Source: a virus (Monodnaviria; Loebvirae; Hofneiviricota; Faserviricetes; Tubulavirales; Inoviridae). From it: a stretch of DNA of 9,240 bases. The stretch lies in IMG/VR virus record IMGVR_UViG_2541047969_000007; one strand, written 5' to 3'. Of this stretch, positions 8,309 to 9,063 are shown piece after piece. The first letter of the stretch is position 1. Each line of letters opens with the position of its first letter. Below the pieces are notes generated by a model. It had not been told where the DNA came from. It saw only the letters and a program-made list of their open reading frames with translations, and did no database searches. Both the position numbers and the translations under genes were made by a program.

Positions 8309-8584
8309 ATGAAACTGAATCCTGAGAAATACAATAGAAATATCACCCTGCTATGTCCTGTGTGCGGAAATACAGAGATGGAACACGAGGAAGAGTCTGA
8401 AGTCGTCAGATGTGTAGGCTGCGGGAAAGAATTCACTAATGATGAGTTAATCCAAGAAAACGGGGTGAGTATTGACGCCCATGTGGATGAGATAAAAGAA
8501 GAGTTAACAAAAGATATTCAAAAACAGTTTAACGACATGCTCAAAAAGGCATTTAAAGGAAGTAAAAATATAAGGATTAAATAA
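8309..8584 (+). CDS. Small zinc-ribbon protein (CPVCG-x18-CVGCG), unknown function
   Basis: 91 aa. Two CxxC pairs, then an acidic/lysine-rich helical tail. Strong RBS AGAGGA with 6-nt spacer. Stop overlaps the start of the next gene (TAATG). Confidence 0.6.
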   Translation: MKLNPEKYNRNITLLCPVCGNTEMEHEEESEVVRCVGCGKEFTNDELIQENGVSIDAHVDEIKEELTKDIQKQFNDMLKKAFKGSKNIRIK

Positions 8585-9063
8585 TGACAACAAGTGATGC
8601 CATCGCTTTAGCTGCGCTTGTAGTATCGATTTACACTATCATATCATCAGAAGTGAAGTCGAGAAAAAGTGATAGAGAACAAAAGGTTATAAAGGATGAG
8701 CAAGACAGATTACGTAAGTTGCTTCTGGAAAAAGAAACAAAGTCAGCAATTAATGAGATGAAGGCTGAGCTTGGTGCCCGCCTCGTAAAAATAGCCAAAA
8801 ACAACTATAGACTCAAGATATTTAATAGAGGGAAAGTTGAGGCTAAAAATATAGAGATTCATTTCCCTGATAACGATGGCAATGAATATCTTTCCATGCA
8901 TGATGTAGAAGATAAATTTCCATATGAAGTATTACACCCGCAACATGGGATTGAAATTTTAGCGGGACTAAGCTTTGGAAGCAAAACTAAATACCGAATA
9001 AAACTCATATGGGATGACAATTATAAAAAAAGGAATGAAGAGGAGTTTTTCATTTCTATATAA
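8584..9063 (+). CDS. N-terminally membrane-anchored protein with charged helical segment and C-terminal globular domain, unknown function
   Basis: 159 aa. N-terminal TM helix AIALAALVVSIYTIISS. Charged, probably coiled-coil region (KSDREQKVIKDEQDRLRKLLLEKETK). Translationally coupled to the zinc-ribbon gene. Followed by a hairpin at 9091..9130. Confidence 0.6.
   Translation: MTTSDAIALAALVVSIYTIISSEVKSRKSDREQKVIKDEQDRLRKLLLEKETKSAINEMKAELGARLVKIAKNNYRLKIFNRGKVEAKNIEIHFPDNDGNEYLSMHDVEDKFPYEVLHPQHGIEILAGLSFGSKTKYRIKLIWDDNYKKRNEEEFFISI

Follow-up and report, generated by a model that had tools for sequence, protein, structure and literature searches.

We report that two small genes lying beside the phage attachment site (attP) of a filamentous prophage, here called genes A and B, constitute a self-contained, horizontally mobile two-gene operon, which this prophage carries as a swappable cargo. 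The pair was studied in a 9,240-base stretch of DNA from the family Inoviridae (hereafter the window; IMG/VR record IMGVR_UViG_2541047969_000007), in which gene A encodes a 91-aa zinc-ribbon protein and gene B a 159-aa membrane-anchored protein. The operon is widespread and occurs mostly outside phages, and we propose, with a probability that we put at about 0.5, that it functions as a candidate anti-phage defence or exclusion module. A search of the literature by accessions, family names and PHROG identifiers recovered no paper on the pair, and with no description of it as a system found we regard it as a credible new candidate rather than an established system; its strict pairing, its wide spread outside phages and its contexts of defence genes and insertion sequences (ISs) are what is new here.

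A two-gene operon found mostly outside phages

Across all the loci examined, gene A lies directly 5' of gene B on the same strand for 61 of the 63 B genes, the two unpaired cases being one contig end and one secondary deletion. The junction between the genes is tight: in the window they overlap by a single base (stop codon TAA at 8582-8584 and start codon ATG at 8584-8586, giving TAATG), and over the loci as a whole the offset between the stop of A and the start of B is mostly -4, -1 or 0 nt. Moreover, the A and B proteins co-diverge, their identity matrices being correlated (r = 0.76, n = 43 distinct pairs). A scan of one genome per species recovered 40 loci, each with a zinc-ribbon gene directly 5' of gene B, which span Enterobacterales, Burkholderiales, Xanthomonas, Caulobacter, Rhodospirillales, Desulfobulbus, Coriobacteriia, Bacteroidales and Flavobacteriales. 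Since both genes are conserved from Enterobacterales to Bacteroidota, we consider them to be real genes and not chance open reading frames (ORFs). No third gene is conserved at all loci of the pair. Among the first 47 loci 3 belong to inoviruses, the pair turns up on just 4 of 2.9 million viral contigs, and tblastn searches of the GenBank phage set with either protein returned no match.

Some of the taxonomic assignments call for care. The species scan also includes a locus from a Methanoculleus metagenome-assembled genome (MAG; L032), whose archaeal assignment should be treated with caution on account of possible mis-binning. A contig assigned to a Candidatus Nanosynbacter MAG (L008) bears an E. 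coli-type inovirus with a B protein 97% identical to that of the window; it is enterobacterial and has almost certainly been mis-binned. Distant taxa, namely Variovorax, Hydrogenophaga, Xenophilus, Stutzerimonas, a Rhizobiaceae MAG, a Lysobacterales MAG and a 'Bacteroidetes' MAG (L016-L025 and L047), share an identical pair together with its neighbours, including an 879-aa AAA_13 protein; this implies either a mobile element of very broad host range or that some of these contigs are mis-binned.

The architecture that a preliminary description had read from the DNA alone, namely two overlapping ORFs, a CPVCG...CVGCG motif in the first product and a transmembrane (TM) segment, charged helix and C-terminal domain in the second, is reproduced in full by the ORF list and by AlphaFold2 (AF2) models of both proteins. 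Each start codon is preceded by a Shine-Dalgarno-like sequence (GAGAGGA at 8297-8303 for gene A, AAGGA at 8572-8576 for gene B). The same description held that neither protein has a recognisable family; this proved wrong for gene A, which scores above a curated family cut-off, and both proteins have PHROG relatives, but it stands for gene B insofar as Pfam is concerned.

Gene A is a member of the NCBIfam family NF047912 ('ECs_2282 family putative zinc-binding protein', also the RefSeq name of the identical protein WP_000773941.1), with residues 12-65 aligned to positions 1-60 of the 60-residue model at 65.2 bits (E 3.6e-18; curated cut-off 37 bits), and it additionally matches phrog_4852. That model comprises the zinc-ribbon core alone, whose CxxC...CxxC signature gene A shares, whereas the downstream partner B, the long helix and the invariant C-terminal tail feature in no description that we found. 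The AF2 model of gene A (38-sequence alignment, pLDDT 84) comprises a zinc ribbon (residues 13-43), two helices (44-50 and 52-82) and a disordered C-terminal tail (83-91, pLDDT 50-65) that carries FKGSKNIRIK. The invariant residues are C16, P17, C19, G20, C35, C38, K86, N87 and I88; the four cysteines, unchanged across 32 gene A sequences, are predicted to form a C4 zinc ribbon, and conservation peaks in the disordered tail at K86, N87 and I88. A profile search with gene A retrieved 1,151 clusters of relatives. Against PADLOC-DB v2.0 it matched zinc-ribbon segments of larger proteins only (PDC-S64 at 4.3e-7, HEC-08 at 3e-4, PDC-M14A, Cas12f and DruE), and against PDB sequences only generic zinc ribbons, for example eS27.

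Gene B matches phrog_6723 over its full length (E 1.2e-95, residues 1-159 on 1-159 of 159), which, like NF047912 and phrog_4852, is a family of unknown function. Its AF2 model (pLDDT 87.9) displays a long helix (residues 3-59) followed by a beta-sandwich (63-158); residues 6-24 of the helix are hydrophobic and predicted to span the membrane, and its remainder, up to residue 59, is a charged stalk. In 128 of 130 relatives lysine and arginine residues follow rather than precede the hydrophobic segment, and by the positive-inside rule the stalk and the beta-sandwich are therefore predicted to be cytoplasmic, on the same side as the gene A protein. The most conserved parts of gene B are the stalk motif LLLEKE, the strand-turn KIFNRGK and the small TM residues A8 and A11. 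A profile search returned 1,281 representatives at 50% identity, 469 of them with E <= 1e-10; among the best 150 of these 1,281 no domain fusion was seen, all being stand-alone proteins, mostly of about 150 aa. We also considered B as a holin and rejected the idea: the match to the holin family phrog_1350 (E 0.0059) covers residues 1-63 only, and no endolysin or lysis genes lie nearby.

A variable cargo slot beside a predicted folded attP

The window represents one 9,145-bp unit of a tandem inovirus prophage, its bases 1-95 recurring at 9146-9240. The phage is of the dif-integrating CUS-1/YpfPhi type, which is known from E. coli K1 and Yersinia pestis (PMC4266046). Alignments of prophage variants delimit a variable cargo slot in it: because homology breaks after TGGTAA (8280), at the stop codon of the backbone gene just upstream, and resumes from ATTGGTTCGCAC (about 9065), the slot corresponds exactly to the pair. 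Among 5,426 complete E. coli genomes the pair is present in 28, as against 128 with the neighbouring backbone gene at 7858..8280, which occurs irrespective of the cargo, and it is missing from about 100 of those 128. At least five other cargos fill the same slot of near-identical prophages: a 369-aa protein without a family in NU14; a 264-aa DpnII-MboI-type nuclease with a DUF6953 protein in VR50; a 363-aa protein without a family in SCU-101; proteins of 155 aa and 123 aa in M9682-C1; and proteins of 89 aa and 240 aa in strain 8178. The VR50 nuclease matches the PADLOC family Aga_Helical-REase (1e-34) and resembles effectors associated with short prokaryotic Argonautes. The slot behaves like a defence-type hotspot.

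The slot boundaries, the figures of 28 and 128 genomes and the alternative cargos bear out the proposal of the preliminary description that the pair is accessory cargo near attP, acquired apart from the phage core. A survey of related inoviruses found it to be variable, with other cargos in its place, and thus no structural or regulatory gene conserved in all relatives. The low G+C content once offered as a sign of separate acquisition is real, the pair having 35.9% where the phage unit has 42.1% and the gene upstream 48.5%, but since some core stretches are equally AT-rich it is not decisive by itself. In UM146 (L048, 1,980,781-1,982,257) the membrane gene of 7858..8280 and the pair are found together in a UPPhi/Lineavirus-like backbone whose small regulator and structural genes differ; it has only genes II and V in common with the CUS-1 type, an indication of modular recombination among inovirus lineages.

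Variable accessory ORFs of unknown function have been described at this end of CUS-1, YpfPhi and UPPhi (PMC4266046, PMC7307601). These (orf1/orf1a, YPO2271/2272) occupy the same place as the pair, from the repressor arm to the dif-type site, and like it vary between otherwise near-identical phages; the earlier papers took them for phage-specific hypotheticals without homologues, whereas here the pair emerges as a widespread non-phage module. In the UPPhi survey h3 is found in 221 of 229 prophages and h4 and h5 in 56-57 of 229 (PMC7307601). As these frequencies parallel our 128 and 28 genomes, h4 and h5 of UPPhi901 are probably the pair.

Immediately after the cargo starts the first of two dif-like sites. 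Both sites, together with a G+C-rich hairpin, fall within an imperfect palindrome of about 100 nt (9064-9163, by self-complementarity), and folding of 9055-9175 as single-stranded DNA (ssDNA) gives a forked stem of about 100 nt (-29 kcal/mol, z = -5.8). Judged from sequence and fold prediction, 9064-9163 is a folded CTX-type attP(+). YpfPhi and CUS-1Phi are listed as CTXPhi-type (PMC4246890), and as in the CTXPhi-type attP(+) the window has two inverted dif-like sites around a hairpin, predicted to be forked in ssDNA; the likeness belongs to the flank and not to the gene pair. The hairpin reported earlier 3' of the pair is real (-30 kcal/mol, z = -8.3) but not merely a terminator, being placed at the centre of the predicted folded attP, and it probably has a double role, ending transcription of the pair when read into RNA and forming the tip of the folded attP when the phage DNA is single-stranded. 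We also considered whether the pair is an Xer 'dif module' of the Acinetobacter pdif-module type and rejected this, the dif-like sites lying 3' only with none between 7858 and 8309. A module bounded by Xer sites everywhere was likewise discarded, such sites adjoining the pair only in Enterobacterales phage or IS contexts and at a Providencia dif. The latter, in Providencia vermicola (L015, about 9489), is a near-canonical dif site (GGTTCGCATAATGCATATTATGTTAAAT) some 270 nt upstream of the pair, which suggests that an element once integrated by Xer recombination at the chromosomal dif has left a remnant there.

Klebsiella and E. coli conjugative plasmids carry a three-gene version, A-B-C, between an ISNCY/IS1202-family transposase and the matching right inverted repeat; tblastn recovered 93 plasmid records in all, and a sister IS copy has a STM4504-family gene at the same place. 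ISs of the ISKpn21 type, which belong to the IS1202 family, are reported to insert at Xer sites and to have uncharacterised genes as passengers (bioRxiv 10.1101/2022.12.17.520857), a habit that the A-B-C passenger fits, whereas the window has an inovirus as the carrier and lacks gene C. Gene C (123-127 aa; L003 8517-8900, L056 6511-6882, L053 3565-3936) lies 3' of the pair in this IS/plasmid subfamily and has no Pfam or PADLOC match. A literature search on ISKpn21 passenger genes and defence found nothing relevant. The 74-nt segment 9064-9137, comprising a dif-like site and the hairpin, closes the slot of the phage cargo just as its counterpart closes that of the IS passenger; it is 90-96% identical in the IS copies (L005 8900-9030, L056 6882-7030, L049 2501-2629), as against only 39-62% for the proteins. 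It is matched in about 650 of the 5,426 E. coli genomes, about half of the matching places being on plasmids, and may be a cassette boundary common to Xer-exploiting elements.

Defence-gene neighbourhoods and possible functions

We then considered the gene neighbourhoods of the pair outside inoviruses. In Bacteroidales it is embedded in type I restriction-modification (R-M) operons in the order hsdM, Schlafen/AlbA_2, A, B, hsdS ... hsdR, and in Proteus the order is type I R-M, Mrr, A, B and then AlpA/DUF3987 of an integrative element. A GC-rich genome shows A, B, SIR2-nSTAND, type I R-M and AAA_13, and metagenomic contigs show DUF6119, a phosphatase, A, B and SIR2_2. In Citrobacter koseri the pair shares an islet linked to mnmE with a fragment of an integrase gene and with BrxR, a regulator of defence; in Yersinia an OLD-family nuclease lies beside it, and other loci feature GmrSD, a KAP NTPase, HNH or the 879-aa AAA_13 protein. 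The type I specificity subunit HsdS is the commonest family among 139 neighbours at 29 non-redundant loci, and linkage to defence genes is seen, as a raw count, in at least 10 independent contexts. We regard this association as suggestive. The idea of a defence-type function, originally a guess, thereby gains circumstantial support from gene neighbourhoods.

Two-gene systems that combine a membrane effector with a soluble partner include RexAB of phage lambda and KwaAB of Kiwa. The pair is likewise a small prophage- or island-borne operon for a cytosolic and an inner-membrane protein that is found in defence islands; it has no sequence or profile similarity to either system, and B has one TM helix and a cytosolic immunoglobulin (Ig)-like domain where RexB and KwaA are multi-pass. 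No system in PADLOC-DB v2.0 is matched by both proteins of the pair. Given that the A tail, the B stalk, the B strand-turn and the small TM residues are the most conserved parts of the two proteins, we infer that A docks on B by helix-helix packing and strand addition. Specifically, A, a small cytosolic zinc-ribbon protein, would bind B, an inner-membrane protein with a single N-terminal helix and a coiled stalk, on its cytoplasmic side, with the long helix of A packing along the conserved LLLEKE stalk and the KNIRIK tail of A adding a strand to the beta-sandwich. On this model A might sense or gate the system, and B might be a membrane effector that oligomerises via its small-residue TM helix and damages the membrane; alternatively, B might block a phage step at the inner membrane. 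All of this is conjectural, from the binding of A to B and the parts of sensor and effector to a phenotype of defence. A bolder version of the proposal would make the pair an undescribed, widespread anti-phage system, consisting of a strand-docking zinc ribbon and a membrane-tethered Ig-like protein, and in Enterobacterales a cassette moving between dif-integrating inoviruses and ISKpn21-like ISs via the 74-nt boundary; taken as a whole, we hold this to be doubtful.

Several observations weigh against a defence function. Gene B has no Pfam, NCBIfam or PDB-sequence relative in profile searches and no family at E <= 1 in PADLOC-DB v2.0, a library that holds systems described up to 2023. As its fold is a generic Ig-like sandwich without a catalytic signature, the effector role assigned to it is a guess. 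About four loci (L035, L037, L041, L046) have housekeeping neighbours only, the linkage is a raw count, and toxin-antitoxin, regulatory and anti-defence genes likewise occur in defence islands. A search of the plus strand gave no consensus promoter. Finally, in an M9682-C1-type prophage (L053 2941-3940) the A ORF is cleanly deleted, the upstream sequence being fused to the last codons of A, and B (155 aa) and C (123 aa) are intact in the same inovirus slot. This A-less variant is found in about 24 complete E. coli genomes at >=95% identity; its persistence indicates that A is not indispensable, at least in the three-gene subfamily, and that B is tolerated without a cis copy of A, with two caveats, namely the presence of gene C and a possible supply of A in trans.

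The same deletion bears on an alternative raised in the preliminary description, that of a toxin-antitoxin pair in which B would be a membrane toxin and A a zinc-ribbon antitoxin, together stabilising whichever element carries them, be it prophage, plasmid or IS. An arrangement in which a small first gene overlaps the second is typical of such systems, the pair is carried on conjugative plasmids, ISs and prophages with TacAT, ParDE and HipBA nearby, and there are faint resemblances of A to MqsA-type antitoxins (TIGR03830, E 1e-3) and of the N-terminus of B to the holin family phrog_1350 (E 0.006). However, B remains intact where A has been naturally deleted, subject to the caveats just given, and this weakens the case. 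Furthermore, the MqsA-type score of 18.9 bits falls below the cut-off of 61.8, the AF2 model of A has no helix-turn-helix (HTH) or other DNA-binding domain for autoregulation, and B possesses a folded domain of about 95 residues, unlike short pore-forming toxins. We therefore judge a toxin-antitoxin function to be unlikely. Somewhat less likely again is that the pair modulates R-M or another defence, as an anti-restriction factor or regulator instead of an effector. Among Pfam families A best matches the zinc ribbon of the restriction-alleviation protein Lar (PF14354, E 9e-4), the pair recurs inside or beside type I R-M operons, and its carriers are incoming plasmids, ISs and phage, which would gain from evading restriction; yet the Lar match (19.9 bits) is below the gathering threshold of 28.6, more than 20 other zinc-ribbon families score similarly, and A reaches only 12 bits against the Lar model TIGR03655 (cut-off 39.6). 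Lar works without a membrane partner, the pair is also found beside SIR2, BrxR, OLD, GmrSD and KAP, and some of its loci are devoid of any R-M.

A function in the inovirus life cycle, be it in assembly, in the control of phage production or in an immunity confined to filamentous phages, appears highly improbable. It would accord with the immunity-arm location of the pair and the strand that it shares with the repressor, with the predicted inner-membrane location of B, which is that of inovirus assembly proteins, and with the report that resident YpfPhi partly protects against superinfection (PMC4266046). It is difficult to square with the roughly 100 of 128 E. coli genomes that have the backbone gene and no pair, with the same backbone working with five other cargos, with more than 40 non-viral loci, some in phyla without such phages, and with the near absence of the pair from viral collections. 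A defence or exclusion module accordingly remains the reading that we favour.

The phage unit around the pair

Table 1. Features of the cargo arm and attP flank in the 9,240-base window
Feature	Position	Strand	Basis
HTH (Cro/C1-type) prophage repressor	7312..7758	+	Pfam HTH_3 1.6e-9; phrog_3557 4e-74; RefSeq helix-turn-helix protein
Short hairpin then UCUUUAUU, 3' of the repressor gene	7788..7816	+	RNA fold -12.8 to -14.2 kcal/mol, z = -2.9
140-aa membrane protein, near-core backbone gene	7858..8280	+	phrog_4174 3e-85; without Pfam family
Variable cargo slot of CUS-1/UPPhi-like inoviruses	8281..9066		Alignments of six prophage variants; filled exactly by the pair
Gene A, C4 zinc-ribbon protein	8309..8584	+	ORF, NCBIfam NF047912, AF2
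Gene B, membrane-anchored protein	8584..9063	+	ORF, phrog_6723, AF2
dif-like (XerC/XerD-type) site 1, GGTTCGCACAATGACGTTATGCTAAAG	9067..9093	+	Pattern search; invariant in all cargo variants and IS copies
17-bp G+C-rich hairpin then TTTT	9091..9130	+	RNA fold
dif-like site 2, inverted, GGTGCGCATAATGTACGACTCGTTATGTTGAAA on the minus strand	9128..9160	-	Match to reverse complement of E. coli dif at 9133-9160; pattern scan

A tandemly repeated prophage of E. coli FDAARGOS_1303 is 100% identical to the window; it is annotated with Zot, a secretin, replication protein II/X and an HTH protein, and its unit adjoins hipBA and fimA-like flanks. At least two full units are present in the stretch of that genome examined, with the pair at 3 places in the record, and in E. 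coli EC5502 16 places match the pair. A megablast search of a phage collection with the whole unit gave no match. The repressor gene forms the left edge of the immunity/cargo arm, and the hairpin that follows it is a possible weak terminator. An Rfam scan of 7700-9240 returned sub-threshold chance matches on the hairpin only.

The 140-aa gene between repressor and cargo slot, which has the highest G+C content within the unit, is common to two inovirus backbones (CUS-1-like and UPPhi-like) and always lies directly 5' of the slot; its product could be an immunity or exclusion factor. A three-gene system including it was considered and rejected, the gene occurring in about 100 genomes that lack the pair, and the pair in more than 40 loci that lack the gene. 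Two 82-aa ORFs on the minus strand at the opposite prophage end (156-404, which matches phrog_6642, and 550-798, without a clear family) are positional counterparts of the function-unknown accessory genes of the YPO2280a/YPO2281 type beside attR.

Even without a phenotype, the pair would still be a well-defined conserved operon, of which the B component deserves a family definition. The common boundary of Xer site and hairpin suggests a cargo route between phages and ISs that live at dif. If the pair indeed protects its host, it would be a compact two-gene defence system with an unexplored membrane-tethered architecture and more than 1,000 family representatives. A defence hotspot would then lie beside the attP of small filamentous prophages of pathogenic E. 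coli, kin of the plague-associated YpfPhi, and would provide a concrete fitness benefit for phages whose value to their host has so far been uncertain.

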